Below, in pieces: positions 46,010-63,795 of a stretch of 64,000 nt of DNA. Both the position numbers and the translations under genes were made by a program. Where the stretch lies: contig JAAFKJ010000001.1 in assembly GCA_021399395.1 (NCBI GenBank), forward strand, positions 7,357-71,356, written 5' to 3'. Numbering within the stretch: position 1 is the first letter of the stretch; each line of letters starts with the position of its first letter. The notes under the pieces are model-generated. The model did no database searches. It saw nothing but the letters and a program-made list of their open reading frames with translations, and was not told the origin of the DNA. Source of the stretch: Candidatus Heimdallarchaeota archaeon (GTDB lineage: Archaea > Asgardarchaeota > Heimdallarchaeia > Heimdallarchaeales > Heimdallarchaeaceae).

Positions 46010-46879
46010 TTGAGTTTAATGAGCGGGATTGAACAACTTAAAGAAATTATTCCAGATGTTATTGCAGGTTTTGTTCGTTATGCTGATTTTAGCATGATAC
46101 CTGAAATTTCTCCTCTTAAAAATAAAAATACACTCTTGCCTATACTTAAACGTATGAAAGAAGGAGGAGCTAATGGATGTTTATTCTATCTTTATGATGA
46201 AGATATGGCTCAATTTCTAAATACCGTAAATGCAGAAATCAAAGACTTTCCCATTATGATTGTAGTTCGTTCTGCAGAAATAGGAAAAACCACTACTTTA
46301 TTGCAAAACTTAGAATTCAAACCACTTGTTATTTTCTTAGATTATGCTATTGCAGATCAAAGAGATAATGAGATTGTTAACAAGTACTTACACACTTTAG
46401 CAAAATATACCGAACATTTTGGTCTTTTCAGTATAGAACCTATTGGAACAGTGTCTTTTTTCATTACGCAGAATCCACTTATCAACATCTATCTAATTCC
46501 CTTCAACATGTTAGGATTTGGTGTTCAAAACAGAAGTTTGCTTGAAATGATTGTAAACTCATCAGAGAATGTCTACTTGACAATGAATCCTCTTGCTCAA
46601 GGTAGAATTAAACCAAGACAAGCCTTCGATTATATAACTACTCATAAAATCCATGGATCGATGGTTGAGATTGCAAATGTAGATATTAATTTAGAAGCAA
46701 TCAAGTTTGCAAAATACTTCTTCGAAACACATGATTTCTTACAAATAGCTTTAGAGTTTGAGGATCACGCAGAAGTATGTGAAAACTGTGGGATAGGTAT
46801 GTATAGATATTTTCCACCTTCTGGTGGTAGTGGGTTCTACTGCCCTCAGTGTCAAGCAACAAGAAATCTACCAAAATAA
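46010..46879 (+). CDS. hypothetical protein with a C-terminal zinc ribbon
   Basis: CENCG-x15-CPQC at the C-terminus. The rest is unrecognised. Confidence 0.5.
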   Translation: MSLMSGIEQLKEIIPDVIAGFVRYADFSMIPEISPLKNKNTLLPILKRMKEGGANGCLFYLYDEDMAQFLNTVNAEIKDFPIMIVVRSAEIGKTTTLLQNLEFKPLVIFLDYAIADQRDNEIVNKYLHTLAKYTEHFGLFSIEPIGTVSFFITQNPLINIYLIPFNMLGFGVQNRSLLEMIVNSSENVYLTMNPLAQGRIKPRQAFDYITTHKIHGSMVEIANVDINLEAIKFAKYFFETHDFLQIALEFEDHAEVCENCGIGMYRYFPPSGGSGFYCPQCQATRNLPK

Positions 46880-46890
46880 TTATCTAACGG

Positions 46891-47463
46891 GTGAGTAAGA
46901 TGAAATCATGTCCTTTCTGTGAAAGGTCTATTCCAGAAATTTCTGTTTTTTGTGCTTATTGTGGTAAAAAGGTTAAAGATATTGAAGTAAGCGAATCAAA
47001 ACAATCTAATTTTGAATCAGGCTTTCAAAAATCTTTGAAGAAAATGAAGAAGCAAGTATCAACCTTTGTTTCAGGTTTAAACACCAAAGTTGAGAATTCT
47101 GAATCTCTCTCTTTTGTTAATAAACAAAGGATTCTTGGCATTCTCAATCAGCTTCAGATTCAAGACCAAAGAGAACTAAGTGAAGATAAAGAAGAACTAG
47201 CTATTTGGGTTGAGAAAGTAGAAGAAGCTATATCAGGAGACAAATGCATTATTTGCTTGCAAGAATTCGAAGTTAAAGAAAATGAAGAGCTAAATGTTAT
47301 TTTATGTCCTTCATGCAATTATGCTGGCCATCCAAACCATTTCATAACTTGGTTAGACACAAAAAACAACTGTCCTATGTGTAGAAGCGAGTTAACTAAA
47401 AAGAGCTTATTACGTGGTCATTTAACAATCAAAGAAGAGCAATTGACTTTCATACAAGATTGA
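46891..47463 (+). CDS. zinc-ribbon + RING-like (cross-brace) zinc-finger protein
   Basis: N-terminal CPFC-x10-CAYCG. C-terminal CIICLQEFEVKENEELNVILCPSCNYAGHPNHFITWLDTKNNCPMCRSEL closely resembles RING-H2 E3 domains. Confidence 0.65.
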   Translation: MSKMKSCPFCERSIPEISVFCAYCGKKVKDIEVSESKQSNFESGFQKSLKKMKKQVSTFVSGLNTKVENSESLSFVNKQRILGILNQLQIQDQRELSEDKEELAIWVEKVEEAISGDKCIICLQEFEVKENEELNVILCPSCNYAGHPNHFITWLDTKNNCPMCRSELTKKSLLRGHLTIKEEQLTFIQD

Positions 47464-47477
47464 ACCTTCAAGAATTA

Positions 47478-48281
47478 TCATTGGGAGTTTTTCTTTTCTC
47501 TCATTTCCAATTTGTATTTTTTCAGGAGATTTTTATATTCTTCTGCTTTTTGTCCCGGATCATCAGAATAAACAATTGGACCTCCAACACAGATCATTGC
47601 ATTGTCATCAAAATTGTAAATTACACTTTTTACGATCAGGTGTTCGCTCCCATAAATAGGTGTTAAGGCAAGGATTTTCGATCCTATTGTTTCTTTCATT
47701 TTCCTAACATCTTTAACATCGATATGCTCTGCATTCCCTATCCAAAATCCATCTACTTGAGCTTTCTTACATCTCTCAGCGACATATAGATAGAGAGGTT
47801 GTTCACTTATGGTAGCAATCTTATAGAACATAGATTCTGGATTCGATAACAAGGTAAGAACAATTATTCCTAGTTTTCTTTGTTGAGCAAGAAGTGATGC
47901 CTTAGCTATATTAGCACTAAAAGGAGAAAATGTAAATGCATCAAAATTCTCTTCTTTGAACCAAAAAATCGCGGAATCATTTGAGGTGTCAATGTCACCT
48001 AGTTTATGGTCAATTATTGAAAGCATATTATTCTGGTGAATCAGAATATTGATTGATCTTATTTCATCAGATGTTAATCCGATTAAATATTGTCTATTAA
48101 GCTTGATTGCACAACTGTAAGGAGCAACATTTTTGATTATCCTTTTCATGAAATTAACTCTATCATCATCTAACATTACAGACCTTGAACGTTGAGATGG
48201 TAGAGCTGGATCTAAACTCACACAGAGCAAACTATCTTTGCTCTTAGAGATTGCAAGATATTGCTGGAGAAACTGTGACAT
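47478..48281 (-). CDS. orotidine-5'-phosphate decarboxylase-like paralog with degenerate C-terminal motifs
   Basis: LCVSLDP, AIKLN and IIDHKLGDID (DxKxxD) are retained. PG[VI]GAQGG reads TPIYGSEH, and VGRxI reads VGGPI. Confidence 0.7.
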   Translation of the reverse strand: MSQFLQQYLAISKSKDSLLCVSLDPALPSQRSRSVMLDDDRVNFMKRIIKNVAPYSCAIKLNRQYLIGLTSDEIRSINILIHQNNMLSIIDHKLGDIDTSNDSAIFWFKEENFDAFTFSPFSANIAKASLLAQQRKLGIIVLTLLSNPESMFYKIATISEQPLYLYVAERCKKAQVDGFWIGNAEHIDVKDVRKMKETIGSKILALTPIYGSEHLIVKSVIYNFDDNAMICVGGPIVYSDDPGQKAEEYKNLLKKYKLEMREKKNSQ

Positions 48282-48351
48282 CTATTAATTCCCATGGAGT
48301 TCATAGGAATCAACGTTTATAATTTTTATTTTTGTTTTCTCCATCATTTTT

Positions 48352-48367
48352 TTGCAGTGAAATGCAA
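48352..48367. promoter_or_regulatory. palindrome TTGCA-gtgaaa-TGCAA in the pyrF-like / pyrBI divergent spacer
   Basis: Read directly. It is the third exact copy of the same half-sites and spacing. Confidence 0.5.
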
Positions 48368-48442
48368 TAAAAACCCCTTTTTTCCTAAGAAATCGCATGA
48401 TTTATAACTGAAAATTTCTTTACTGAATTGGAAGATACGAGA

Positions 48443-49360
48443 ATGAATCTCGAACACTTATTTACAATAAGAAGAATGTCCAAAAATCTTATGGAGGACA
48501 TTTTCGATTTAGCTTCTTCTATAGAAGAAAAACCGGATTCTTTTGCTGAAAAATGCAAAGGAAAAATACTAGCTGCTCTCTTTTTTGAACCAAGTACCAG
48601 AACAAGATTATCCTTTGAAAGCGCTATGTTAAGACTTGGAGGACAAATTCTTGGGTTCTCAAGTGCAAAAGTAAGTAGTTCATCTAAAGGAGAGAGTATC
48701 GCTGATACCTTTAGAATGTTAAATCACTACGCGCACATAGCAGTAATTCGGCATTACATCGAAGGGATTGGAGAGATTGCTAAGGAATTTGCTACAATCC
48801 CAATGATATCTGGAGGTACAGGAACACAAGAACATCCGACTCAAGCACTGCTTGATCTTTATACCATAAGGAAGGAACTAGGAAAGGTAGACGATATAAC
48901 GATTGGAATCATGGGAGATTTACTCTATGGAAGAACAATACCCTCTCTTCTTTTTGGTTTAGCTAAATATGATAATGTGAAAGTTCATCTAATTTCTCCA
49001 CCAGCACTACATATACGTAAAAATGTAAAACTGCGCCTGGAAGAAAATGGTCTTGCTTTCAGAGTAACAGAAAATCACAAAGAAGTAATAGATGAACTAG
49101 ATGTGCTGTATGTGACACGCTTACAGAAAGAACGATTTCCTGACCCAACAGATTATGAGAGACTAAAAGGAGCATATCAGATCCGTAAATCTGATTTGAG
49201 AAAAGCAAAAGATAGCATGATAATTTTGCACCCTCTTCCAAGAGTAAGTGAGATTCCTTTTGAATTGGATGAACTAAAATATGCTAAGTATTTTGACCAA
49301 GCAAAAAATGGAGTATGGGTACGAATGGCTCTAATTCTTAAATATCTAGGAGTGGATTAA
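48443..49360 (+). CDS. pyrB: aspartate carbamoyltransferase catalytic subunit
   Basis: FFEPSTRTRLSFE, HPTQALLD, HPLPR. ATG 48443 is preferred; the track's TTG 48428 is possible. Confidence 0.92.
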   Translation: MNLEHLFTIRRMSKNLMEDIFDLASSIEEKPDSFAEKCKGKILAALFFEPSTRTRLSFESAMLRLGGQILGFSSAKVSSSSKGESIADTFRMLNHYAHIAVIRHYIEGIGEIAKEFATIPMISGGTGTQEHPTQALLDLYTIRKELGKVDDITIGIMGDLLYGRTIPSLLFGLAKYDNVKVHLISPPALHIRKNVKLRLEENGLAFRVTENHKEVIDELDVLYVTRLQKERFPDPTDYERLKGAYQIRKSDLRKAKDSMIILHPLPRVSEIPFELDELKYAKYFDQAKNGVWVRMALILKYLGVD

Positions 49361-49831
49361 ATGAATGAAGATAAGAATAAATTGATTGTAAGAAAAATAG
49401 AGAATGGAACAGTGATTGACAGAATTCCTCCAGGTAAAGCTTTGCGCATACTCGAGGTTTTAGGAATAGATGCAAATTACCCATATACAGTTGCACTCGC
49501 TATACGTGTTCTTTCCAAAAAAATGTCTCTTAAAGATGTAGTAAAAATCAAAGGTAAGGAATTAACAGAAAATGAAGTTCATAAGCTCTCATTTATTGCT
49601 CCAGGAGCATCTGTAAATATCATTCAGAATTTCGAGGTTCAGAGAAAAATACAGTTAGAAATTCCTGACCATGTTGAAGAATTTATCAAGTGTCTTAATC
49701 CAAATTGTGTTTCTAATTCCCATGAACCCATAACCTCATCATTTGATATAATTTCTAAAAAACCTTTGATTCTTAGATGTATCTACTGTGATAGAGTTAT
49801 GGAGGACAAATATCTAAGTGGAAAACTATAG
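49361..49831 (+). CDS. pyrI: aspartate carbamoyltransferase regulatory subunit
   Basis: LIVRKIENGTVIDRIP, C-terminal zinc domain CLNPNC...CIYC. Starts 1 nt after pyrB. Confidence 0.9.
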   Translation: MNEDKNKLIVRKIENGTVIDRIPPGKALRILEVLGIDANYPYTVALAIRVLSKKMSLKDVVKIKGKELTENEVHKLSFIAPGASVNIIQNFEVQRKIQLEIPDHVEEFIKCLNPNCVSNSHEPITSSFDIISKKPLILRCIYCDRVMEDKYLSGKL

Positions 49832-51079
49832 GTAGGTACCAATGTCTTTTCTGTAGAAAAGATTCCCTTTTATTTGTGTAATCTTCCTATCATTTTCAAT
49901 TTTAGCAGATTCCAGGTCATCTCCCTTTGTTACAAGAGCTATAGCTCTACTGGATGTTGTTCTGATGGTGCTTTTATCTCGATAAACTGAAGCATAAAAA
50001 ATATCCTTATTTATGGCTGGATCAACCTCCACCGGTTCCTCTTTTACAGGATTTTGTGGATATCCTTGAGGAACTAGATAAGTACATACGGTAGCTTGTT
50101 TCTGAAACTCTGCTTTTGATAAATTCCCGTCTATTATTTGAGAAGCAATTTGCAGGAAATCAGTTTGTAATAATTTTAGAACATTTAGTGCTTCTGGGTC
50201 ACCAAATCTTACATTATATTCAATTAAAAATATACTATCTTCCGTTTTCATAAATTGTCCATACAGAATCCCTTTGAATTTTTCACCTGTGTTCTGATTT
50301 AATGCTTTCAGGGTTTTCTTTATTATATTCAGCGCATCCTTGTAATCCTTCTTTGAAAGGAATGGTAAATTGTGATCAGGAAGACTATATGATCCCATGC
50401 TTCCAGTCAAGGGTCCTTCCTCATTCTCGTATGCTCTTTTATAATCTCTTACCAAAGGCATAGGTAGAATGTTTGAACCATCTGTAAAAACCTGTAAGGA
50501 GAATTCTTTACCCTTCTTCTTCTCTTCAATCAAGTATTCACCTTCGCGGTTAATTAAGGTTTTAACGTACTTTGTTGCTTCATGAATATTTGTTAAATGA
50601 TCACCATAAACTTTTACACCCTTACCCCCAGTTAATCCATCGGGTTTGATGACAAAATCAGTTCCAAATTCATCTACAGCAACATCAAGATCCTCAACTG
50701 ATTTACCAATCATATAAGATACATTTCCAGGAACATTATAAATGTCCATCAAGTAACGAGTAAAAATCTTGCTACTTTCAATTTTTGCTACATTCTGTCG
50801 AGGACCACATGTTGGAATCCCTAGTTTATCTTCTAGATAATCAGTAATGCCATTTGCAAGAGGATTTTCAGGACCAATGATCGCAAAGTCTACATTTCTG
50901 TATTTCTTTAATTTCTCAAAATTATTTAGATCTCCAATACTAAATTTTTTTGATAAATCTGCAATACCAGGATTCTCTCTAGACATATATGAAAAAAGTT
51001 TGGCATCATTCTCTACAATCTTCATTGCAATGGAGTGTTCTCTTGCCCCATTTCCTACAAGTAATACTTTTAACCCCAT
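49826..51079 (-). CDS. purD: phosphoribosylamine-glycine ligase
   Basis: KVLLVGNGAREHSIA, ATP-grasp VIKPDGLTGGKGV, EYNVRFGDPE. Confidence 0.92.
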   Translation of the reverse strand: MGLKVLLVGNGAREHSIAMKIVENDAKLFSYMSRENPGIADLSKKFSIGDLNNFEKLKKYRNVDFAIIGPENPLANGITDYLEDKLGIPTCGPRQNVAKIESSKIFTRYLMDIYNVPGNVSYMIGKSVEDLDVAVDEFGTDFVIKPDGLTGGKGVKVYGDHLTNIHEATKYVKTLINREGEYLIEEKKKGKEFSLQVFTDGSNILPMPLVRDYKRAYENEEGPLTGSMGSYSLPDHNLPFLSKKDYKDALNIIKKTLKALNQNTGEKFKGILYGQFMKTEDSIFLIEYNVRFGDPEALNVLKLLQTDFLQIASQIIDGNLSKAEFQKQATVCTYLVPQGYPQNPVKEEPVEVDPAINKDIFYASVYRDKSTIRTTSSRAIALVTKGDDLESAKIENDRKITQIKGNLFYRKDIGTYL

Positions 51080-51081
51080 GT

Positions 51082-52479
51082 TTAGACCTCTTCATAGTGG
51101 CTTCTGCTTACTAATTCTCCATTCAAGTATCTTATCCGTATTTCTTGTGCATGTTCAGTAGGATAACTACCTGAAAGACATGCAGTACATAAGTCAGAAA
51201 ATCCGATAGATTTTTTCAAAGATTCAATGTTTTGATAGTATAATTCATCCACATCCAGAATTTGTTTCATTTCTTCAATTTTGTATCCGGAAGCGATCAG
51301 TTCATCATCAGTAGGAAAATCAATTCCATAATAACAGGCAAATCTAATAGCAGGACAAGTGACAGCTAGATAGATCTTTTTTGCACCTAGTTTTCTAAGG
51401 TCCTTAATGATTTTCTGGCTTGTTAATCCTCTTACAATGGAATCATCTACAACAAGGATATTTCTATCTTTAATGAAAGTTGGAGTGTAGAGATATTTTC
51501 TCTTAGCTACGCTTGTTCTCTCTTCCTTACTTTTCATAATGAAAGTTCTCTGAAGATATCTGTTTTTGATAATTGCTTCTCTAACCGGGATGTTGAGAAC
51601 CTCTGATAGACCTTGGCTTGCAGGTCTAGATGTATCTGGAACAGGTACAATGAAATCAATTTCAAGTTCAGATTTCTGAATTCTATGTCCTAACTCTCTA
51701 CCAAGTTCTAACCTTACATCATACACTAACCTCTGTTCAATATATGAACATGGATGTGCAAAATAAACAAACTCAAACATACAATGAGCATGATCACGTT
51801 GAACTATACTGGTATGTTTAACATCGTTTTTATTGATAAAAACTAATTCACCAGGTTTAACATCTTCGAATTTCTCTATTCCTAAATTTTGAAGAACGAC
51901 GCTTTCTGATGTAACTAGAGACACATTTTCAAACTTCCCCATTACTAGAGGTCTCAAACCTCTTGGATCTCTAAATGCAAACAATTGATCATTAAGAATA
52001 CCAATAATTGAATAACTTCCATCTATTGATTCCATAAATGCTCTTACTGCCGCTTCAATATCTCCTTTCATTTTATTAATTTGCATCCCTAAGAAATCAA
52101 CAACAAATCTAGCATCTGATTCGTATGATTGTTGTGTTAGAGAGGAGAGATTGGTAACATTTCCATTATGTACAATCGACAAGCTTCCAGATTCTGTTTC
52201 AAATGAGAATGGTTGTGCATATGTTTCTATATTGGAACTATCGGTTCTTGTACCAAAAGTAGGATATCGTGTTGCACCAAGTAGAGATCTAGTTTCTATT
52301 TTCTCATCTATTTCAAGTAAATCGGGATAACTATCTGATTTAGAAGTAATCAGACTAGCTGTGGATTCATCATACCAAGCTAAACCACTGGCATCCTGAC
52401 CTCTGTGTGTGAGCATCTGAAGCAGTATTCGGCCTTGTCCCAAGGTTGTTAATCCTTTGATTCCTAAAACTCCACACAT
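51082..52479 (-). CDS. purF: amidophosphoribosyltransferase
   Basis: N-terminal MCGVLGI (Ntn Cys), HRGQDASG, PRT loop ILVVDDSIVRGLTS. Confidence 0.93.
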   Translation of the reverse strand: MCGVLGIKGLTTLGQGRILLQMLTHRGQDASGLAWYDESTASLITSKSDSYPDLLEIDEKIETRSLLGATRYPTFGTRTDSSNIETYAQPFSFETESGSLSIVHNGNVTNLSSLTQQSYESDARFVVDFLGMQINKMKGDIEAAVRAFMESIDGSYSIIGILNDQLFAFRDPRGLRPLVMGKFENVSLVTSESVVLQNLGIEKFEDVKPGELVFINKNDVKHTSIVQRDHAHCMFEFVYFAHPCSYIEQRLVYDVRLELGRELGHRIQKSELEIDFIVPVPDTSRPASQGLSEVLNIPVREAIIKNRYLQRTFIMKSKEERTSVAKRKYLYTPTFIKDRNILVVDDSIVRGLTSQKIIKDLRKLGAKKIYLAVTCPAIRFACYYGIDFPTDDELIASGYKIEEMKQILDVDELYYQNIESLKKSIGFSDLCTACLSGSYPTEHAQEIRIRYLNGELVSRSHYEEV

Positions 52480-53085
52480 TTATTCCACTATCCTAGCTTT
52501 ATTACTATATACCTGTATTTTCCCTAAAGAGAAGAGTGAAATTGCTTTAGGTAGTAACACATGTTCTTCTCTCAAAATCCTATCAGCAAGTTCTTTCTCT
52601 GAATCCTCACTGTATACCTCAACACATTTCTGCAGAATAATGGGTCCTTCATCAACTGTTTCAGTTACAATATGAACAGTACAGCCTGAGATTTTCACAC
52701 CAAAGTCTAATGCTTGTTTTTGCGCTTTTAGCCCAGGAAAAGAAGGAAGTAGGGAGGGATGTATATTGATGATTTTGTTCTTATACTTAGATATAAAATT
52801 CGAGGATAAGATCTGCATGAATCCTGCGAGAACTATGAACTCAATTTTATTGTGTTCAAGTATTTCTAAAATTTCGCTCTCTTGTTCACAATAATCAAGA
52901 TTCTTTTTATCGACAATAGCTGTTTGTTTGTGACTTCTTTGAGCAATTTCTAATCCTTTTGCTTCAGGATTGTTTGATAGTACTAAAACAATTTTAGTTT
53001 TCCCCAAGCTCTTCTCTTCTTCTGCTTTCAGAATAGCTTCAAGGTTTGTTCCTCTTCCAGATATTAAAACAGCTGTTCTCATCAT
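52480..53085 (-). CDS. purN: phosphoribosylglycinamide formyltransferase
   Basis: AVLISGRGTNLEAIL, INIHPSLLP, GCTVHIVTETVDEGPII. Confidence 0.9.
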   Translation of the reverse strand: MMRTAVLISGRGTNLEAILKAEEEKSLGKTKIVLVLSNNPEAKGLEIAQRSHKQTAIVDKKNLDYCEQESEILEILEHNKIEFIVLAGFMQILSSNFISKYKNKIINIHPSLLPSFPGLKAQKQALDFGVKISGCTVHIVTETVDEGPIILQKCVEVYSEDSEKELADRILREEHVLLPKAISLFSLGKIQVYSNKARIVE

Positions 53086-53086
53086 C

Positions 53087-54121
53087 TCACCTCGTAAATA
53101 TCACATTATAGTCTTGAATTTTAACAATAGGATCCGTGATAATCTCACCGATTATTAGCGAATCAAAGTGTTTTGAAAGAGTTTCGAGAGCTTTTTGAGC
53201 ATTATTTTTGGAAACAATGACAACGAAGCCTATACCCATGTTGAATATGGAGAACATTTCTTGGTAGTCTATATTCCCTACAGATTGAATCTCATGAAAT
53301 ATTTGTGGGATGTTGCACCATTTGTCGATTTGAAAACCAAGATTTGTTATTCGAAATAGTTTCTTAAAACCTCCACCTGTGATATGAGCAAGTCCATTTA
53401 TTTCGCAATTTTCTGATAAGTCTTTAATTGCTTCAGTGTATATTCTTGTAGGAATTAGCAATTCCTCTCCTACATTTGTTCCCCATGGAAAACTTTCATT
53501 GTATTCATATTTAATAGATAAAACTTTTCGAAGTATAGTAAAACCATTAGAATGAATCCCACTACTTGTTATCCCTATGATTACATCTCCAACTTTTATT
53601 TTAGAACCATCTACAATTTCTTTGATATCAACTATTCCGAGTGCAGTACCAGCAAGATCAAAAGAATTGATGTTAGTTGATAGAAGCTCTGGTATTTTCG
53701 CCAGCTCACCTCCTATCAGAGGTATTTTTGCCAGCTCACAACCTTTCAAAATTCCTTGCATGATACCATCTATAACATCTTCTTGAAAGTCTGAAACTGC
53801 TAGATAATCAACAAAAGCACTTGGTTGAATTCCCATTGCTAGAAGATCATTAACATTCATTGCAACACAATCTATACCCACAGTATCAAACTTTCCAGTT
53901 TTTTGGGCTATAAGCAGTTTAGTTCCAACTCCATCAGTTGCTAAGGCCAGTCCATAATCTCCAAATTTAATCAGATTAGCATAATGACCTTCTTTAGATA
54001 CAACATTTCCAAGTTCAAAGCTACTTTTCACATACTTGTTGATATTCTTCAAAATCCTAGCTTCTTTAGATAAATCTATTCCAGCCTCAGCATAAGTATT
54101 AGGTATATTCTTTTCAGTCAT
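53087..54121 (-). CDS. purM: phosphoribosylformylglycinamidine cyclo-ligase (AIR synthetase)
   Basis: YAEAGIDL, LATDGVGTKL, GIDCVAMNVNDL, SSGIHSNGF, AHITGGG. Confidence 0.93.
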   Translation of the reverse strand: MTEKNIPNTYAEAGIDLSKEARILKNINKYVKSSFELGNVVSKEGHYANLIKFGDYGLALATDGVGTKLLIAQKTGKFDTVGIDCVAMNVNDLLAMGIQPSAFVDYLAVSDFQEDVIDGIMQGILKGCELAKIPLIGGELAKIPELLSTNINSFDLAGTALGIVDIKEIVDGSKIKVGDVIIGITSSGIHSNGFTILRKVLSIKYEYNESFPWGTNVGEELLIPTRIYTEAIKDLSENCEINGLAHITGGGFKKLFRITNLGFQIDKWCNIPQIFHEIQSVGNIDYQEMFSIFNMGIGFVVIVSKNNAQKALETLSKHFDSLIIGEIITDPIVKIQDYNVIFTR

Positions 54122-54140
54122 TGAATTCCATCTCCCATAA

Positions 54141-54539
54141 TTATCTTACATTATTGAAATTGATAAGCTTAAGAATTCGAATCGATAGATATGCAGCATT
54201 TTCTCCGTTATCAATCCCTACTGTTGCAACAGGTACCCCTTTAGGCATCTGAACCATGGACAATAGTGCATCCATCCCATTCAATGCTGCCGACACTGGA
54301 ACCCCTATTACTGGTTTTTTTGTCAAAGATGCTACAACTCCAGGTAGAGCTGCTGCTAAACCAGCTATGCAAACGAAAATATGTGCTTTAGAATTTTCTA
54401 CTTTAACTACTAATTTATCGTGATCTCTATGAGCAGAAATATAGCTCACTTTGAAATCGATTGAGTGTTTTTCCAAAACACTTGTAACTTTTTTAACTAT
54501 TTTTTCATCACTTTTGCTTCCCGCAATTATTTCTATCAT
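54141..54539 (-). CDS. purE: phosphoribosylaminoimidazole carboxylase catalytic subunit / N5-CAIR mutase family (short, 132 aa)
   Basis: [31 protein letters not shown]. No purK in the window. Confidence 0.88.
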
Positions 54540-54540
54540 A

Positions 54541-56718
54541 TTATTCCTCCATAAATCTTGAAATCGCTTTTGACCAGCTTTCCCTTAGTTCTTTCAGATC
54601 AATACTAATCTCATCATCAATTCTAATTTCAGGTGTAGAAATTGTTTTTCCGAGAATCTTATAATCGTCATCTTTCTTCAAATTCTCTTTAATATACTCT
54701 AGTTTTGATTGTGATATTTCTACAACATATCTAGTTGGAGCTTCTGCAAAAATAAACTCTTCAATGGATAGATTCTCCTCTTCTAGAACATTGTTTAAAG
54801 ATAATTCCACACCAATATTTTTATCAAAAGCCATTTCAATGAGAGATGTAATTAGCCCCCCATTTGATATATCGTGGCAACTTAAAATGAGTTTTTCATT
54901 ATTTAATTTCTCGATAATCTGCCTTGATTTCATTTCTTTATCGAAATCATAAGTTGAGATTTTTCCCTCTATTTTACCATGATTATATCTCAGATATTCA
55001 GAACCATTCAAGTTTCCATCATTAAATCCAATCGAGATAATTATGCTATCTTCACTCTGAAAACTGTTCTTGATAAGTTGATTTGGCTCTTCAATTATTC
55101 CAATCATACCTATTGTGGGTGACGGATTAATGCGATCCTTCTTTCCAGCAATTGAAGATTCATTATAGAATGAGACATTCCCACCAACTATCGGTAATGA
55201 AAAATCCTTAGAAAATTGTCCCAATCCTTTTACAGCTTCTACAAATTGCCAATACGAATCTGGGTTTTCTGGATTACCAAAATTTAAGCAATCGACAATA
55301 GCTAATGGTTTGGCACCTACACATACGAGATTCCGCATCGCTTCTGCTGCATTGTTTGCAGTTCCATTGAATGGGTCTAGATAAGTCATGAAAGAATTAC
55401 AATCCAAAGATAGGGCTATGTATTTTTCATTTTCCAATTTTAACACAGCAGAATCAGATCCTGCAGCGATTACTGTCTGAGTCTGTACATGTTGGTCATA
55501 TTGTTGATAAACCCAGGATTTATCTCCAATATTTGGTGAAGACAATAGCTTCAAAATCTCTTCTTTGATATTTGGAGAGATTGGCACAGTGTATGATATC
55601 TCATCAGACACATAATCAGGAATTTCAAGAAGTCTTTCAGGTTCTGGGCAACCTTCAACAACTAGATCTACTGGCAATTCCACGACTTTATTTCCCTCAA
55701 AGAATGCGATATAATGACTATTGTCTGTAACCTCTCCTATTACTGAAGATTGTAAATCATATTTATCCAAGATTTCGCACACTTTTGATAGTTTCTCAGA
55801 ATCTACAATTGCAAGCATTCTTTCCTGAGATTCAGAAACAAGGATTTCCCAAGGTTCCATGTTTTTCGCTCTTAAGGGAATATCTTCTAATCGTATTATT
55901 GCACCAGTTCCTCCTCGAGAACACATTTCAGTTACACCGCAACTCAATCCACCTCCACCTAAATCCTGCAAACCAGCAAGTAGTTCTTCTTCTACTAGCT
56001 CAAGCGTAGCATCAATGAGGATTTTTTCCATTAGTGGATCCCCGATTTGAACTGCAGGTCTATCTTTCTCGCTTTTATCACTTAGATCCTTTGATGCAAA
56101 AGAAACACCATGAATTCCATCTCTTCCAGTTGACGAACCATACAGAACGAGGAAACTTCCAGGTTTTGATGCAATACTTCTAACTACTTTTTTCTTATCT
56201 ATTACTCCCACACACATTGCATTAACTAAACAGTTTTCTTCAAAAGGTTGAGCAAATTCAACTTCTCCTCCTAAAGTTGGTATTCCGCAACAATTTCCAT
56301 AAAATGAAATTCCTCTCACTACATTTTCAAATAGATGTTGAGACCTCTTAGATTCTAATTCTCCAAATCGAATAGAATCTAATAGTGCTACTGGTCGACA
56401 TCCTTGAGAAAGTATATCTCTAATTATTCCACCTACACCTGTTGCAGCACCATCATAAGGTGAAATTGCTGATGGGTGATTGTGACTCTCCAAACCCAAA
56501 CCAACTAAAAATCCATCTCCAATATCAATTAAACCTGCACCTTCACCAATTCCCAGTTCTAAGTATGGAGCTTCTGTATTGAATAAATGAAACCACCTCT
56601 TAGATGATTTATAGGAGCAATGCTCAGACCACATTGCTTCAAATACAGCTATTTCAGCTTCGTTTGGTTCCCTTTCAAGAGAATCTTTAATTGTACCATA
56701 TTCTTCAACAGTTAGCAT
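54541..56718 (-). CDS. purL: phosphoribosylformylglycinamidine synthase subunit II
   Basis: [30 protein letters not shown], 725 aa. Confidence 0.93.
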
Positions 56719-57401
56719 GTCAATTCCTCTTTTAAATTTTCAAAAATTATTTTTCCATCTTCTGATCCTAAATACAGAAAGCTGGCTCTTTCGGGATGGG
56801 GCATCATGCCTAACACATTGCCAGTTTTGTTAACTATCCCAGCTATATTTTCCAATGAACCATTTGGATTGCTTTCCTCATTAATTTCCCCCTGTTCATT
56901 GCAATAACTAAAGGCTATCTGATTATTATTTCCTAGCCTCTGGATGTTCGCTGGTTCGGAATAATAACGGCCTTCATAATGAGCAATTGGGAGCTTGAGT
57001 TTTTTATTTTCCATGCCTTTAAGTAAGGAGCATGAAGTTTGTTCAGTAGAGATATTTACCCACTTGCAGATGAATTTTGTAGAAGTGTTTGTAGTAAGTA
57101 TTCCAGGCAGTAATCCTAATTCACAGAGTATCTGAAAACCATTACAGATACCAATTACAAATTTGCCTGATTCAACATACTCTGGAAGTTTTTTTGCTAT
57201 AGGTGAATGAGATGCTATTGCACCTGGTCTTAGATAATCACCATAAGAGAACCCTCCTGCAATTATCAAAGCATCAACTTCTTCTAGAAGTTCAGAGTTA
57301 TTGGGAAAGATGTACTCATACCGAAGTCCCAGTGAACTTAAAACCCTAGCTACATCTTGTTCGTTATTTGTTCCTGGAAATTTAGTTATACCAATTTTCA
57401 G
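56712..57401 (-). CDS. purQ: phosphoribosylformylglycinamidine synthase subunit I (glutaminase); the start appears to be a non-canonical CTG
   Basis: GICNGFQIL (Cys nucleophile) and MPHPERA. The frame upstream of the track's ATG (57269) stays open and encodes (L)KIGITKFPGTNNEQDVARVL...DALIIAGGFSYGD, the conserved PurQ N-terminus. An in-frame TAA lies directly before CTG 57401..57399, and GGGTGAT lies 4 nt upstream. Confidence 0.85.
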   Translation of the reverse strand: MKIGITKFPGTNNEQDVARVLSSLGLRYEYIFPNNSELLEEVDALIIAGGFSYGDYLRPGAIASHSPIAKKLPEYVESGKFVIGICNGFQILCELGLLPGILTTNTSTKFICKWVNISTEQTSCSLLKGMENKKLKLPIAHYEGRYYSEPANIQRLGNNNQIAFSYCNEQGEINEESNPNGSLENIAGIVNKTGNVLGMMPHPERASFLYLGSEDGKIIFENLKEELTC

Positions 57402-57406
57402 TTATA

Positions 57407-58390
57407 TCACCCTTCGTTAGATGTCTCGAAATATTCCATGGATAACTTGGTTTCTTCAATCAAAGGATTTGAGAGAATTCTGTTGGATATTTCTTGTGTT
57501 TTTTTGTAAAGTGATTCAGAAGGAACGGATGAAAACTTGATACTAGCGTTTTTACCAAGTCTAACTGATTCAATATTCTCATATTCATTCCGTTTTAATG
57601 ACCTAAAAGTAACTTCACCGGCTGGGTCGAGAACTGAATCCTTTAGAGAAATCCGAATATTGGTTTTGGTGTTGAACTCTATATTAGGAAGTTCTGTGAT
57701 TGTTTCCAATCTTTCAAGTATATCCTTATAGTGTTGAATGACATCTCCAAGATCTTTTCGATATCTATCCTTATCCTTAATTTCCCCAGTATTAATTTCC
57801 CATAACCTCATTGTATCAGCTGAAATTTCATCTGCTATAATCAGTTTACCCTCATGACTTCTACCAAATTCAAGCTTAAAATCCACAAGTACAAGTGAGA
57901 TTGACTTGAATATATTTCTTAGAATATGATTCACTGCTAAAGTAACAGCTTTAATTATAGTTGCATCTTCACCCGATAGGTAGTTCATCAAGATTGCTGC
58001 TTCTTCTGTAATTAATGGATCATGTAATTCATCTTCCTTCAAAAAGAACTCAACTAAAGGTTGATCGAAGTTTGTTCCAATCTCAATCCCATATCTTCTA
58101 CAAAAACTTCCAGCAGCTATATTTCTACAAACTATTTCTACGGGAATTATATCGACTTTTTCACAAAGTAAATCTCTACTCGATATACTCTTGAGATAAT
58201 GTGTTTCTATATTATATTCATTCAAAATCTCAAATAGTTTTGCAGAAGTTCGGCAGTTAACTTCACCCTTATTCAGAAGTTCTTCTGTTTTTTCTCCATC
58301 AAATGCAGAAATCGAATCTCTAAAATGGATTTTAACTTCCTTTTCATCCAGAAGTTCTATATCTTTTGCTTTTCCAGAGTATCTCTCCAA
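57407..58390 (-). CDS. purC: SAICAR synthetase fused to a C-terminal PurS domain
   Basis: Residues 1 to ~235: YSGKAKDI, DSISAFDG, LVDFKLEFG (PurC). Residues ~241-327: IRISLKDSVLDPAGE...VRLGKNASIKF...ILSNPLIEE, matching PurS (compare VSLKESVLDPQG...VRIGK...LLANTVIED). TTG start. Confidence 0.88.
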   Translation of the reverse strand: MERYSGKAKDIELLDEKEVKIHFRDSISAFDGEKTEELLNKGEVNCRTSAKLFEILNEYNIETHYLKSISSRDLLCEKVDIIPVEIVCRNIAAGSFCRRYGIEIGTNFDQPLVEFFLKEDELHDPLITEEAAILMNYLSGEDATIIKAVTLAVNHILRNIFKSISLVLVDFKLEFGRSHEGKLIIADEISADTMRLWEINTGEIKDKDRYRKDLGDVIQHYKDILERLETITELPNIEFNTKTNIRISLKDSVLDPAGEVTFRSLKRNEYENIESVRLGKNASIKFSSVPSESLYKKTQEISNRILSNPLIEETKLSMEYFETSNEG

Positions 58391-58403
58391 ATTTTACACC
58401 ACT

Positions 58404-58419
58404 TTGCATTATTTTGCAA
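58404..58419. promoter_or_regulatory. palindrome TTGCA-ttattt-TGCAA (extends to TTTGCA/TGCAAA), just upstream of the purC-purS start
   Basis: Read directly from the sequence. It lies 13 nt from the TTG start of the minus-strand pur operon. Confidence 0.55.
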
Positions 58420-58548
58420 ATTAATGACTTTTTGAAACTGGGAATTTTAGTATGTATAGTTTTTAAACTTTCTGGATAATACTATTAAAAAACCTATAGA
58501 ATCAACTTAAGGGTTTATGAAAATACACAAATATAAAAAGATAAGTTC

Positions 58549-58564
58549 TTGCACAGTAATGCAA
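58549..58564. promoter_or_regulatory. palindrome TTGCA-cagtaa-TGCAA upstream of the HTH-PRTase gene
   Basis: Read directly. It lies about 9 nt downstream of the TATA-like ATATAAAAAG (58531..58540) and about 50 nt upstream of ATG 58614. Confidence 0.55.
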
Positions 58565-58613
58565 AACCTTTTCAATGATATGAAAAGGACTATATTGAAA
58601 AACAAGTGATATT

Positions 58614-59393
58614 ATGTCAAATGCAAGCACACCTGATAGTTATATTGATGCTCAAGAGAAACTAATGACACTTAATCTTCTTCAGATGGCCTTTAAAAAA
58701 TTCGACACTCTTGAAACATGCAGATCATTTCTTCAAGAACATGGGGTTGAGGTTTCTGTTGCAAACCTTTCTAGATATATCAACGGGAAAGCAATTCCAA
58801 AATCAAAACTCAAAAATTCTTTGCTCAAAGTCCTGATAGACAACAAAGAACTTGGTTTAACAATTAAAGAGCTCATAATCAAACACTTAGATATCAAGAC
58901 CGATGAAACAGGTATGATTACAGTAAACAATACCTATTTGCTAAATGACTCAAAAACCTTGAAAGCGATTTTATTTCTAGCAATCCAACAAGGCATTATT
59001 CCAAGAGAGGTTGATAAAGTGATAACTGCTGAAGTTGATGGAATTCCAATTGCAATGACTCTTGCTCATCTTCTTAACATTGATTGTGTTTATGCAAGGA
59101 AGAAGAAACCCATTGGTACCTCTGAGTTTCATAGTGAGGATATTATTTCAGCGAATACTAGTAGAATGGAGACAATCTATTTTCCAGATAAATTCATCAG
59201 AAAGAATGAGAGGGTTATAATCATCGATGACATTATTCGCTCAGGTGCAACACAAACGGCACTAGTTAATCTTGTAAATAAATGTGAAGGAATTCCTCTA
59301 AAAATCATCATACTAACTGGTGTTGGAGGACACTGGGAAAAAACTACTAAATTAAAGTTTACTGATTTCAAAACTCTAGTTACTCTAAAATAA
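58614..59393 (+). CDS. XRE-type HTH domain fused to a type I phosphoribosyltransferase domain; putative nucleotide-biosynthesis regulator
   Basis: N-terminal VSVANLSRYINGKAIPK (Cro/C1-like HTH recognition helix). C-terminal PRPP-binding loop VIIIDDIIRSGATQ. It lies divergent from the pur operon, 16 nt upstream of purP. Confidence 0.7.
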   Translation: MSNASTPDSYIDAQEKLMTLNLLQMAFKKFDTLETCRSFLQEHGVEVSVANLSRYINGKAIPKSKLKNSLLKVLIDNKELGLTIKELIIKHLDIKTDETGMITVNNTYLLNDSKTLKAILFLAIQQGIIPREVDKVITAEVDGIPIAMTLAHLLNIDCVYARKKKPIGTSEFHSEDIISANTSRMETIYFPDKFIRKNERVIIIDDIIRSGATQTALVNLVNKCEGIPLKIIILTGVGGHWEKTTKLKFTDFKTLVTLK

Positions 59394-59409
59394 CGGCAGA
59401 TGGTGTTAT

Positions 59410-60492
59410 ATGATTCAAGAACTGATAAAACAATATGATTATGAGAACATTAGTGTAGGAGTAATTGGATCCCACTCTGCTCTCGATATATTAGATGGTG
59501 CAAAAAAAACAAGATTCAAAACCACAGTAATTTGCGAAAAAGGAAGGGAAGAGCCCTATACAAGATTTGATAGGATCATAGATAATTTGATAATTTTAGA
59601 TAAGTTCTCGGACATATATTCAATCCAAGAGGAATTAAGAGAAGAGAATTGCATTTTCGTACCAAATCGTTCTTTTGCCGTGTATTGTAATACAAACCGA
59701 ATTGAAAAAGAATTTAGAGTGCCTTTGTTCGGTTCAAGAGAACTCCTAAAAGTTGAGGAAAGGGTAGGACTGCACAATTATTATGAAGTACTAGATGCAG
59801 CAAAAATAAAATATCCTAAAACTTTCAAAAATCCAGAGGAAATTGATTGTCCAGTCATATGCAAAATGCCTCATGCTAAACTTGAAGTTGAAAGAGGTTT
59901 CTTTGTAGCAAAAGATAAAGAAAATTTTTTTGAGGAATTCAATAAGCGTGTCGAAAATGGTACAATAAGAAGAGGTGATCTTTCTAAGGCATCGATAGAA
60001 GAATTCATTTCTGGTGTTACATTCAATTTCAATATCTTTTACTCCCCGATATATAATCGAACAGAATTAATTGGGATAGACCGTCGTTTTGTTACAGATC
60101 TAGATGGAATTGTACGTTTGCCTGCGGAACAACAACTTCAACTAGAACTTGAAGAAGAAATGAAAGAGATAGGCAACTATGCTGTTACTTTAAGAGAATC
60201 AATGTTAAGACACGTATTTCCAATGGCAGACGACTTCGTTAAAGCAACAAAGAAACTCTATCCTCCGGGCATTATTGGCCCATTTGCGCTTCAAACCATG
60301 ATAACTAAGGATTACGAATTCATAGTATTCGATGTATCCATGAGAATGGGTGGTGGAACAAATAGTTTCATGGGGACAGGCAGTCAATATTCAGCTGTTT
60401 ATTGGGGAGAACCAATCTCAGCAGGTAAGCGAGTTGGAATGGAAATAAGAAGAGCCGTTGAACAAAACAGATTGCAGTATATTGTAACTTGA
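59410..60492 (+). CDS. PurP-family ATP-grasp protein (5-formaminoimidazole-4-carboxamide ribonucleotide synthetase family), divergent paralog
   Basis: VIGSHSALDILDGAKK, VPLFGSRELL, PPGIIGPFALQ, GGGTNSF. Confidence 0.8.
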   Translation: MIQELIKQYDYENISVGVIGSHSALDILDGAKKTRFKTTVICEKGREEPYTRFDRIIDNLIILDKFSDIYSIQEELREENCIFVPNRSFAVYCNTNRIEKEFRVPLFGSRELLKVEERVGLHNYYEVLDAAKIKYPKTFKNPEEIDCPVICKMPHAKLEVERGFFVAKDKENFFEEFNKRVENGTIRRGDLSKASIEEFISGVTFNFNIFYSPIYNRTELIGIDRRFVTDLDGIVRLPAEQQLQLELEEEMKEIGNYAVTLRESMLRHVFPMADDFVKATKKLYPPGIIGPFALQTMITKDYEFIVFDVSMRMGGGTNSFMGTGSQYSAVYWGEPISAGKRVGMEIRRAVEQNRLQYIVT

Positions 60493-60526
60493 GAGTACTA
60501 ATAATCGTAAAAAGAAAATGAAGAAT

Positions 60527-60576
60527 ATTCAACATTCAAAGGATTACACTGAAGAATTCTTCGAATGATGTTGAAT
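60527..60576. repeat. nested inverted repeat between the two purP paralogs
   Basis: Outer arms ATTCAACAT (60527..60535) and ATGTTGAAT (60568..60576). They enclose the perfect 12-bp palindrome GAAGAATTCTTC (60551..60562). Confidence 0.6.
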
Positions 60577-60616
60577 GTTAGACTAAAGAAATAAAAACAG
60601 TTTCAAAAACTACGAT

Positions 60617-61621
60617 GTGAATAACTTGATAATCTCAACCATAGGAAGTCATTCCGCACTTCAAATATTATTTGGAGCTAAACAAGAGAATTTCAATACC
60701 AAAGTATATTGCTTAAAGGACCGAGATAGTCTTTACCGAAGATATCCCGTCGCAAATGAAATAGTCACACTTGATTCTTATGAAGATCTTCTAGAAATTG
60801 CTGCTGATTCCCAAGAAATTTTTATTCCTCATGGTACTCTGATTGCGGCTCTAGGAGACAAATTAAGGGACATTTCTATACCTATGTTTGGAAATAGAGA
60901 GGGGATGTTGTGGGAGATGAATCGAGCAAAGAATCAAAAACTTCTGGAAACTGCAGGAATTAGAGTTCCTCGAACACTGAAATCTGATGATATCACCGAG
61001 TTAGCGATCGTGAAATTTCCAGGAGCTATGGGTGGTTCAGGGTATTTTGTTTGCTCCTCCTCTGATGAATTCGATACCAAAATTAATGATTTAGTCTCTC
61101 AAAATAAGATCTCAGATTATGACATTAAAAATGCCCAAATTCAAGAGTATGTAACTGGAGTAACTATGTATCCCCATTACTTCTATTCTGGGATCTATGA
61201 AAGAGTTGAGATGCTTGGAATAGATAGGAGATATGAAACCAACGTAGATGCGCTAGGTCGATTATCTCAGAACGATCATCCAGTTGAACCCTCATATAAG
61301 GTAGTTGGGAATCAACCTTTAATTGCAAGAGAATCTCTATTACCACAAATCCTAGAACATGGTGATAAATTGAGGGAAGCTTCAACAAATCTTTTTGCAC
61401 CAGGTTTGATAGGTCCATATTGTATAGAAATGGCCATTACATCAGAAGAGATAGTTGCTTTTGAATTTACTAGCAGAATTGTAGCGGGTACAAGTTTGTA
61501 TGTAAACGGTTCACCTTATTCAAAGATCTTATTCAATGAAGAAATGAGTATGGCTAAGCGTATTGCAAGGGAGATAAAAATGGCAATGGGGCAAAGAAGG
61601 CTGCAGGAGTTCCTTACATAA
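60617..61621 (+). CDS. purP: 5-formaminoimidazole-4-carboxamide-1-(beta)-D-ribofuranosyl 5'-monophosphate synthetase
   Basis: STIGSHSALQILFGAKQ, IPMFGNRE, VKFPGAMGGSGYF, ARESLLPQ, APGLIGPYC, MAKRIAREIKMA. GTG start. Confidence 0.85.
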   Translation: MNNLIISTIGSHSALQILFGAKQENFNTKVYCLKDRDSLYRRYPVANEIVTLDSYEDLLEIAADSQEIFIPHGTLIAALGDKLRDISIPMFGNREGMLWEMNRAKNQKLLETAGIRVPRTLKSDDITELAIVKFPGAMGGSGYFVCSSSDEFDTKINDLVSQNKISDYDIKNAQIQEYVTGVTMYPHYFYSGIYERVEMLGIDRRYETNVDALGRLSQNDHPVEPSYKVVGNQPLIARESLLPQILEHGDKLREASTNLFAPGLIGPYCIEMAITSEEIVAFEFTSRIVAGTSLYVNGSPYSKILFNEEMSMAKRIAREIKMAMGQRRLQEFLT

Positions 61622-61632
61622 AAGGTGATGAA

Positions 61633-63141: not shown

Positions 63142-63160
63142 AATGATAAAGGTTAGAAAA

Positions 63161-63769: not shown

Positions 63770-63795
63770 GCAAGATACCTTCATGAACAAATCCG

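Follow-up and report, generated by a model that had tools for sequence, protein, structure and literature searches.

A gene at positions 47478..48281 (minus strand) of a 64,000-nucleotide stretch of DNA from a Candidatus Heimdallarchaeota archaeon, whose full length we call the window, encodes a 267-amino-acid paralog of orotidine 5'-monophosphate (OMP) decarboxylase (OMPDC; PyrF) that we designate PyrF2. To judge from its sequence, this paralog arose from a canonical type-2 pyrF inside a single Heimdallarchaeial genus. It retains the catalytic core of OMPDC and has a thoroughly altered phosphate-binding site, and we consider the chances about even that it is a neofunctionalized OMPDC that decarboxylates an unphosphorylated orotate derivative, either orotidine or orotate. 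OMPDC is the textbook example of an enzyme that invests phosphate-binding energy, about 12 kcal/mol of it, in closing over its substrate. In PyrF2, evolution seems to have removed this closing apparatus while keeping the core under strong selection, so that the "core plus activating domain" model can be put to the test on a natural protein. PyrF2 also points to an unrecognized reaction in pyrimidine metabolism.

Family Assignment and Fold of PyrF2

The pyrF2 gene is an intact, monocistronic open reading frame (ORF) that is convergent with a RING/zinc-ribbon gene. Its product matches the Pfam family PF00215 (OMPdecase) over residues 18-249 with a score of 56.1 bits (cut-off: 27), and OMPDC models are the only ones that it meets in a scan of NCBIfam, each far under the respective cut-off. 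Against the type-2 model TIGR02127 (pyrF_sub2), it reaches 53.4 bits with an equivalog cut-off of 110.6, and only the N-terminal two-thirds of the protein are matched; the paralogs P0001, P0010, P0027 and P0019 score 53-54 bits each. The initial annotation of this gene had proposed a comparison with the profiles of OMPDC, 3-keto-L-gulonate 6-phosphate decarboxylase (KGPDC; UlaD) and hexulose-phosphate synthase (HPS; HxlA). Membership in the OMPDC family is borne out by this comparison, but an affinity to KGPDC or HPS is not, as the Pfam and NCBIfam profiles of UlaD and HxlA yielded no match at E ≤ 0.01. The position of the metal-binding Glu that KGPDC and HPS carry at the end of beta-2 is occupied by Lys60 in PyrF2. 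The genome contains four PF00215 genes in total: the canonical pyrF, pyrF2 and two HPS-like genes (E = 1e-42 and 6e-26 on TIGR03128). With no match to the UlaD and HxlA profiles, and with the HPS-like genes being the two others, a KGPDC or HPS identity of PyrF2 can be ruled out.

The structure prediction that the initial annotation had called for gives a confident OMPDC fold. An AlphaFold2 model built from a 54-sequence alignment has a predicted local distance difference test score (pLDDT) of 92.9 and a predicted template modeling score of 0.91. All 50 matches listed by Foldseek in a comparison of this model with the PDB are OMPDCs, the top ones having query-normalized TM-scores of about 0.8 at E ≤1e-14; the best of them are the enzymes from Toxoplasma (4mjz), Leishmania (3qw3), Plasmodium, Methanocaldococcus jannaschii (4luj) and Methanothermobacter thermautotrophicus. 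PyrF2 is thus predicted with confidence to adopt the (beta/alpha)8 OMPDC fold.

The Catalytic Core Is Kept and the Phosphate Gripper Is Remodeled

We compared motifs residue by residue in an alignment with the M. jannaschii OMPDC (PDB 4lui) and in an alignment with 53 relatives (54 sequences). The N-terminal OMPDC signatures reported previously for this protein are all present: SLDP (Asp24), AIKLN (Lys60) and DHKLGDI (Asp91, Lys93, Asp96). Across 21 paralogs with identities down to 52%, D24, D91, H92, K93, D96, S100, N101, S146 and P148 are invariant, among others; Lys60 is a Lys in 20 of them and an Arg in one. The Asp/Lys/Asp-x-Lys-x-x-Asp catalytic network is consequently complete in PyrF2, and so is the Ser that recognizes the pyrimidine. 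On the minus strand of the window, Asp24, which contacts a ribosyl hydroxyl and the Lys network, is encoded at 48210..48212, Lys60 at 48102..48104, the stretch DHKLGDID (residues 91-98) with its D-x-K-x-x-D motif at 47988..48011, and Ser146 in LTLLSNPES, involved in recognition of pyrimidine N3/O4, at 47844..47846. Asp24 is the counterpart of D37 in the yeast Saccharomyces cerevisiae (Sc) and of D20 in M. thermautotrophicus (Mt), Lys60 that of Mt K42, and Ser146 that of Sc S154 and Mt S127; Asp24 and Ser100 together correspond to yeast D37 and T100', the binders of the ribosyl hydroxyls.

The C-terminal part of the protein is a different matter. The initial annotation had read the two phosphate-binding motifs as altered, and this change is real and involves no shift in register: PGVGAQGG of the canonical protein stands opposite PIYGSEHL (residues 208-215; 47637..47660, minus strand), and VGRAI stands opposite VGGPI (residues 232-236), in which Gly234 of the VGG triplet (residues 232-234; 47580..47588, minus strand) takes the place of the gripper Arg. 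The alignments to 4lui and to the 53 relatives rule out that a shifted register hides the Gln and the Arg. While all 33 canonical relatives possess the gripper Arg, it is absent from 20 of the 21 paralogs, PyrF2 included. The Gly-rich gripper loop (canonical PG[VI]GxQGG) is lost in every paralog, and the position of its Gln is Glu213 in PyrF2 and Gln, Asp or Asn in sister lineages, with a Gln persisting in clade B only.

Beyond the two motifs already recognized, the comparison uncovered substitutions of Val by Trp180 at the CO2/carboxylate pocket, of Gly by Asp98 (the Gly of the canonical DIG; Asp in 19 of 21 paralogs), of Ala-Thr by Asn183-Ala184, and of Val by Tyr210. Trp180, Asn183 and Ala184 lie in FWIGNA (residues 179-184; 47730..47747, minus strand). 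In a column-by-column contrast between the paralogs and the 33 canonical relatives, eight positions are diagnostic, six of which belong to the active site or the closing apparatus (G98D, V180W, A183N, T184A, V210Y and R234G); the Gly-rich loop is, in addition, altered throughout. When mapped through 4lui, Trp180 is equivalent to Mt V155, Ala184 to T159, Tyr210 to V182, Glu213 to Q185 (Sc Q215) and Gly234 to R203 (Sc R235), in the numbering of the Gerlt/Richard variants; structures of these M. thermautotrophicus variants appear by title among the Foldseek matches in the PDB. As judged from the alignments, the diagnostic changes all lie either in the apparatus that closes the enzyme in response to the phosphodianion or in the pocket next to C6, and the charge of the phosphate site is predicted to be reversed by the loss of Arg and the gain of Asp98 and Glu213. 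A deep subclade (G014, G015, G021, G026, G028) with PIMGQYKEN, VGGAI, Met at positions 180 and 210, and lacking Asp98, looks like an intermediate stage in this remodeling.

The reference for these comparisons is the canonical copy of the same genome, whose C-terminal part is encoded at 63796..>64000 (minus strand) and which runs past the end of the window. As stated before, this partial gene carries both canonical motifs (PGVGAQGG and VGRSI). It is the last gene of a pyrD-pyrK-pyrC-pyrF operon, adjoins pyrE, and lies about 16 kb from pyrF2. Its product (P0046; 259 amino acids) is 48% identical to PyrF2 and scores 114.3 bits on TIGR02127, above the cut-off of 110.6.

PyrF2 Forms a Clade under Purifying Selection within One Genus

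A search of 5.8 billion proteins retrieved 64 relatives, and those with degenerate motifs (P0001-P0022, P0027) are labeled Heimdallarchaeota or Heimdallarchaeaceae wherever they are named. When 1.84 billion cluster representatives were searched with a profile, the degenerate type was represented by a single full-length sequence (P0007) and by fragments; nearly all other matches retain G-x-G-x-QGG and [GS]R. The phylogenetic survey that had been proposed for this protein hence shows the degenerate type as a monophyletic clade confined to one Heimdallarchaeial genus. Maximum-likelihood trees unite the paralogs in a single clade (SH-aLRT 97) that lies among the canonical PyrFs of the same archaeal family, and the closest relatives of this clade are the canonical PyrFs of congeners without the paralog. 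Both a duplication with subsequent differential loss and a transfer between congeners are compatible with these trees, whose deeper nodes have weak support.

Intact pyrF2 ORFs are found in 18 genomes and on many metagenome contigs. The ratio of nonsynonymous to synonymous substitution rates (dN/dS) amounts to 0.04-0.10 for pairs of paralogs, pairs from the reduced genomes described below included, and to 0.04-0.12 for pairs of canonical pyrF genes. By this measure, pyrF2 is under ordinary purifying selection and not a decaying copy. Among 25 species-level genomes of the genus, seven harbor both genes, six only the canonical pyrF and 11 only the degenerate type. One of the latter, G026, is probably an artefact, as its contig breaks off at pyrE, just where pyrF would be expected. 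In G031, the paralog copy (P0008; L008, G031 C89:11054-11722) has 45 unrelated N-terminal residues, with neither SLDP nor Asp24, and lies within about 270 bp of a contig end; either the gene itself is truncated or rearranged or the assembly is at fault.

PyrF2 Persists Where de novo Nucleotide Synthesis Was Lost

Ten genomes (G008, G013, G016, G017, G018, G019, G023, G024, G025 and G030), to which we refer as reduced, are of particular interest as a search with PF00215 finds the paralog as the sole PyrF-like gene in each of them. Neither protein searches nor the TIGR00336 hidden Markov model (E ≤ 1e-3) detected a pyrE in any of the ten, and a true pyrB and purM are likewise absent from all of them, so that pyrF2 does not depend on the co-occurrence of an OMP-forming PyrE. 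Weak matches to TIGR00336 (20-29 bits) exist in the reduced genomes, but corresponding phosphoribosyltransferase (PRT) ORFs of about 210 amino acids reach similar scores in full genomes such as G000, G009 and G010. One such protein, a PRT of 211 residues at C95, was considered as an orotate phosphoribosyltransferase (OPRT) and ruled out with only 20.5 bits on the pyrE model; its sequence motifs suggest a resemblance to the archaeal hypoxanthine/guanine PRTs. The pyrD gene is kept in nine of the ten reduced genomes (62-100% identity to the query from G023). That the paralog acts there as the sole OMPDC of a complete pathway can be ruled out, because pyrE and pyrB are missing from the same genomes.

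The ancestral gene order, as found in G010, is rSAM - unk289 - RING - pyrBI - pur operon - REG - purP - purP - guaA - pyrE - pyrF - pyrC - pyrK - pyrD - metallophos, with REG denoting a regulator gene that combines a helix-turn-helix (HTH) with a PRT domain. In G000, G009, G014 and G028, pyrF2 is inserted into this order between RING and pyrB. The reduced arrangement is RING - pyrF2 - REG - pyrC - pyrK - pyrD in G023 and G030 and RING - pyrF2 - REG - pyrK - pyrD in G013, G016 and G024; the metagenome contig of P0019 reads pyrD - pyrK - REG - pyrC - pyrF2 - RING, with pyrF2 on the same strand 48 bp behind pyrC, which is the place of pyrF in the ancestral pyrD-pyrK-pyrC-pyrF operon. Every reduced locus with visible neighbors (the five genomes just named and the P0019 contig) thus spares the paralog, the regulator and pyrK-pyrD. 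The initial annotation had placed pyrF2 beside pyrBI. This adjacency exists and is ancestral (pyrB-pyrI, 48428..49831, plus strand, assigned by Pfam and synteny, is the divergent neighbor that was deleted in the reduced genomes), but the lasting association of pyrF2 is with the HTH-PRT regulator and pyrK-pyrD, sometimes also with pyrC.

Mapped onto the paralog phylogeny, the reduced state cannot be explained with fewer than three changes in any bootstrap tree. It is implausible that a lost 20-kb cluster was regained at its former site, and we therefore read this pattern as at least three independent reductions at the locus. In 10 of the 25 species-level genomes, the pur operon, pyrBI, both purP genes, guaA, pyrE and pyrF were lost (loci L035, L037, L039, L048, L049, L050); the affected region corresponds to positions 48428-64000 of the window and beyond (G000 C174), and the HTH-PRT gene is kept wherever a contig shows the locus. 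This represents a repeated, parallel loss of de novo purine and pyrimidine synthesis, i.e., auxotrophy, within one Asgard genus.

A Divergent Spacer and a PurR-Like Regulator

The initial annotation had pointed to a promoter spacer and a palindrome common to pyrF2 and pyrB, and both are there. The divergent spacer (48282..48427) is 146 bp long and contains two TTTATAA boxes resembling TATA elements (48316 and 48401), one per gene. Between them lies the palindrome TTGCA-N6-TGCAA (TTGCAGTGAAATGCAA; 48352..48367), a candidate operator of the HTH-PRT regulator, which is encoded at 58614..59393 (plus strand) and which, by synteny, is the immediate divergent neighbor of the paralog in reduced genomes. 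The 2.8-Mb assembly contains six exact TTGCA-N6-TGCAA sites, three of which fall into this nucleotide supercluster. In G009, G028 and G014, the spacer between pyrF2 and pyrB contains the palindrome with at most one mismatch. Among the reduced loci, that of G030 has an exact copy and, in total, two occurrences in the spacer between pyrF2 and the regulator gene; G023 has a degenerate version, and the loci of G013, G016 and G024 have none that could be detected. It is therefore plausible that a PurR-like protein co-regulates pyrF2 and pyrB in this genome, while such control would not be a universal feature. The PRT domain of the regulator resembles adenine and xanthine PRTs (APRT/XPRT) and PurR rather than OPRT (130 versus 38 bits), and the idea that the HTH-PRT protein is a hidden OPRT is consequently unsupported.

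The other three exact palindrome sites are located at G000 C148:4277, C66:16487 and C176:10562, one of them inside a long ORF. One of these sites lies 174 bp upstream of the gene for a predicted membrane protein of 388 amino acids (C148:2937-4103), a possible member of the regulon.

A Predicted Decarboxylase for Unphosphorylated Orotate Compounds

The pattern of conserved and altered residues lends itself to a mechanistic proposal. The core for decarboxylation of the orotate ring appears to be retained, comprising the Asp-Lys-Asp-Lys-Asp' network, the pyrimidine-binding Ser and the ribosyl-contacting Asp24 and Ser100. Closure driven by the phosphodianion would be dismantled and the charge partly reversed, with the gap filled by the bulky side chains of Ile209, Tyr210 and Trp180. 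Such an enzyme should no longer depend on a 5'-phosphate and would probably repel it, and Ile209, Tyr210 and Trp180, together with a possible clamp between Ser146 and Glu/Gln213, could hold the closed form without the dianion. Studies with yeast OMPDC illustrate what such a change may entail: the R235A substitution costs 5.6 kcal/mol and Q215A 2.2 kcal/mol, and the triple variant without gripper falls from 1.1e7 to 0.037 M-1 s-1 on OMP, equivalent to 12 kcal/mol, with only a nine-fold loss on a phosphate-truncated substrate (PMC12874384). Moreover, the catalytic core of OMPDC can decarboxylate 5-fluoroorotate (PMC12874384). Orotidine would be the most likely substrate and free orotate the alternative; a ribosyl-bearing compound, and hence orotidine, is favored because Asp24 and Ser100 are kept.

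Two suggestions of the initial annotation can be judged in this light. That PyrF2 is not a redundant OMPDC is upheld by purifying selection, by its failure to reach the cut-off of TIGR02127 and by its retention in ten genomes devoid of pyrE, pyrF and pyrBI; as no known enzyme makes OMP in these genomes, the paralog cannot be a redundant OMPDC there. A different and possibly non-phosphorylated substrate is still the best inference from the Arg to Gly, Gln to Glu and Gly to Asp changes with their reversal of charge, although the enzymatic function it implies is a prediction.

The setting of pyrF2 invites a further and more tentative step. PyrD/PyrK would provide orotate from (dihydro)orotate, PyrF2 would convert the orotate compound into uracil or uridine, and the uracil phosphoribosyltransferase Upp would form UMP, so that PyrE and PyrF would be bypassed; the paralog would probably be under the same PurR-like regulator as pyrB. 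Such a route fits the linkage of the paralog with pyrDK. Upp is encoded in 22 of the 25 genomes of the genus and in eight of the ten reduced ones, and two nucleoside phosphorylases of the PNP/UDP type occur in all genomes of the genus. Because no uridine kinase of the PRK type was found in any genome of the genus, uridine would first need cleaving to uracil, and with Upp present and this kinase absent, uracil plus phosphoribosyl pyrophosphate is the likely entry to UMP. A new terminal branch of pyrimidine synthesis, in which orotate from PyrDK is decarboxylated without becoming OMP and UMP arises via Upp, might hence have made PyrE and PyrF dispensable and led to their repeated loss; we regard this as possible, but doubtful as a complete scheme.

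Several points weigh against these proposals. The activity, substrate and pathway of PyrF2 are deduced from sequence, and the geometry of its pocket is read from the alignment only. All genomes considered are metagenome-assembled genomes of 72-92% completeness. One member of the clade, G018/P0015, retains the gripper Arg. We know of no natural orotidine or orotate decarboxylase and of no phosphorylase that forms orotidine, and in the literature we found no description of either or of a paralog of this kind. The missing uridine kinase adds to these difficulties, and the supply of carbamoyl-aspartate or dihydroorotate in the reduced genomes is questionable. Their sole gene resembling an aspartate transcarbamoylase (ATCase; 258 bits on TIGR00670, cut-off 237) shares an operon of catabolic appearance with the genes for a further carbamoyltransferase and a carbamate kinase; in G017 and G018, no such gene was detected. 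Finally, the retention of PyrDK may have nothing to do with PyrF2 and may serve, for example, the reduction of orotate.

We did not accept the ATCase-like gene (C41 / G023 C10), a second one besides pyrB, as proof of de novo synthesis, as the carbamate kinase operon looks catabolic. This operon (G000 C41:10525-29079; L041, G023 C10:33000-46000) contains the ATCase-like gene, a carbamoyltransferase gene of the OTC/YgeW type and the carbamate kinase gene; it is divergent from a gene for an amidohydrolase resembling dihydropyrimidinase/hydantoinase and adjoins a gene for a selenium-dependent xanthine dehydrogenase. The contig C41 of G000 also bears genes for PreA-like, SsnA-like and pyridoxal-phosphate-dependent proteins. 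Taken by its gene content, the cluster looks like one for ATP-yielding anaerobic catabolism of purines and pyrimidines (ureides).

Alternative Functions of PyrF2

Could PyrF2 simply be an OMPDC isozyme that grips the 5'-phosphate in a non-canonical way, replaces PyrF in the reduced lineages and receives OMP from an unrecognized PRT, perhaps the HTH-PRT domain itself? The backbone amides of G233/G234, His214, Lys218 and the family-specific Q30-R31 might then provide the contacts to the phosphate. The intact catalytic and ribosyl-binding residues would suit such an enzyme, as would the P0019 contig, on which the paralog sits right behind pyrC in the ancestral place of pyrF, the HTH-PRT gene that is always kept beside the paralog, the gripper Gln of clade B and the gripper Arg of G018. 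Nevertheless, this reading would demand an OPRT that the TIGR00336 searches (E ≤ 1e-3) did not detect in the ten reduced genomes, and the affinity of the HTH-PRT domain is to APRT/XPRT/PurR (130 bits), not to OPRT (38 bits). Yeast OMPDC already pays about 8 kcal/mol when only Arg and Gln are removed (PMC12874384), the newly acquired acidic residues D98 and E213 at the phosphate site would repel the dianion, and a genome with a good canonical PyrF only 16 kb away has no need for a poorer one. We thus regard an isozyme as unlikely, though it deserves serious consideration. Slightly less likely again, in our view, is a non-catalytic protein that binds orotate, uridine or a UMP-like ligand and serves as a sensor or partner of the PurR-like regulator, of PyrDK, or of PyrF in a heterodimer. 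The residues that anchor the substrate are lost, a Trp occupies the CO2 pocket, and pyrF2 is tightly linked to the regulator gene, with an operator-bearing spacer in common; OMPDC, moreover, is an obligate dimer with shared active sites. The initial annotation had mentioned a pseudoenzyme as well, but pseudoenzymes usually lose their catalytic residues, whereas D24, D91, K93, D96, S100, N101 and S146 are invariant and K60 is kept in 20 of the 21 sequences with identities down to 52%. The paralog also persists without canonical PyrF, which leaves no room for an obligate PyrF partner, and the operator palindrome is undetectable in those loci that are reduced the most.

That PyrF2 works with PyrDK in the catabolic direction, leading from a uracil compound to an orotate compound (by carboxylation or otherwise) and on via dihydroorotate and carbamoyl-aspartate to carbamoyl-phosphate and ATP, is in our opinion very unlikely. 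The operon of the ATCase-like gene, the second carbamoyltransferase and the carbamate kinase, situated beside the hydantoinase-like and selenium-dependent xanthine dehydrogenase genes, would be in line with it, and dihydroorotate dehydrogenases of class 1B are reversible and were first described in the orotate-fermenting Clostridium oroticum. However, carboxylation of uracil compounds at C6 is kinetically and thermodynamically very unfavorable, which renders a catabolic carboxylase chemically implausible, and the cluster is unlinked to the paralog and missing from some of the genomes that bear it. We give practically no credence to a decaying duplicate on its way to a functionless pseudogene. 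The degenerate C-terminal motifs and a PyrF profile score half that of the canonical copy might be taken as hints of decay, but this view is refuted by the intact ORFs in 18 genomes, the dN/dS values of 0.04-0.10, the conserved nature of the substitutions and the survival of the gene through at least three reductions. A decarboxylase for orotidine or orotate is accordingly the function that we favor among those considered here.

Neighboring Genes and Other Members of the OMPDC Suprafamily

Next to pyrF2, the interval 46010-47463 encodes a 289-amino-acid protein without a match in Pfam or NCBIfam and a zinc-ribbon/RING-H2-like protein; a radical-SAM gene follows further on. These three genes occur in every genome whose contig reaches that far, including G010, which lacks the paralog. 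The genes for the 289-residue and the RING-H2-like protein are convergent with pyrF2 and so are probably not co-transcribed with it.

The second HPS-like PF00215 protein of the genome (G000 C128:7959-8630; L004:1405-2076; 223 amino acids) is without the C-terminal VGR/VGG phosphate motif and reads ADIAILNVTE. It scores far under the HPS cut-offs and is conserved in most congeners; the OMPDC suprafamily thus has a further degenerate member in this genome. Several representatives of type-2-like OMPDCs (P0068, P0073, P0117, P0137, P0149 and P0205) keep the gripper Gln and possess Ser or Thr in place of the Arg (VGS, VGT, VSS), so that the gripper Arg is not strictly universal in the type-2-like branch. 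The canonical PyrFs of this GTDB genus fall into three deeply split groups (G010/G011, G014/G028 and G000/G009 types) with branch lengths of 0.3-0.5. Such divergence is unusual for orthologs within a genus and hints at replacement of pyrF or its transfer among congeners. In G009, in-frame stop flags had suggested a decay of the canonical pyrF, which its intact ORF in L040 does not bear out.

Significance and Comparison with Known Systems

If our proposal is correct, PyrF2 would be the first decarboxylase of orotidine or orotate to be found in nature. It would also represent the natural form of what enzymologists have so far obtained only by mutagenesis, a "catalytic core without dianion activation". 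There is also a practical side to these findings. Databases label paralogs of this kind as orotidine 5'-phosphate decarboxylase, and metabolic reconstructions of these Asgard archaea would consequently score the last step of UMP synthesis wrongly as present in lineages that possess neither pyrE nor pyrF, pyrBI or the purine pathway.

With regard to its genetic organization, PyrF2 is reminiscent of the PurR-type regulon of Bacillus, in which an HTH/PRT repressor acts on palindromic operators: the spacer ahead of the paralog bears the putative operator and also serves a divergent gene, either pyrB or that of the regulator itself. This likeness is regulatory only and predicted from sequence, and the palindrome is undetectable in those loci that are reduced the most. 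KGPDC (UlaD) and HPS have the barrel and the D-x-K-x-x-D motif in common with PyrF2 and exemplify enzymes of the OMPDC fold that act on other substrates; unlike PyrF2, however, they use Mg2+ via a Glu at the place of Lys60 and still bind phosphate. Closest to PyrF2 are the canonical type-2 OMPDCs (TIGR02127, EC 4.1.1.23; P0046, 4mjz, 3qw3, 4lui/4luj), with which it shares fold, length, the N-terminal LDPALPxQR, the same catalytic network, the pyrimidine-binding Ser, and the ribosyl-binding Asp and Ser. It departs from them by the replacement of Arg by Gly, Gln by Glu, PG[VI]GxQGG by P[IL][YM]G..., Val by Trp and DIG by DID, by its score on TIGR02127 (53 versus 114 bits), and by its occurrence without PyrE. 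The most instructive parallel is the engineered Q215A/Y217F/R235A variant of yeast OMPDC from the Richard laboratory, which misses the same side chains around an intact core and, with nearly no activity on OMP and near-normal activity on a phosphate-truncated substrate, provides a model for the predicted behavior of PyrF2 (PMC12874384). In contrast to this laboratory variant, the natural paralog has been shaped by selection, and its additional residues Ile209, Tyr210, Trp180 and Asp98 may hold the enzyme closed without the dianion.

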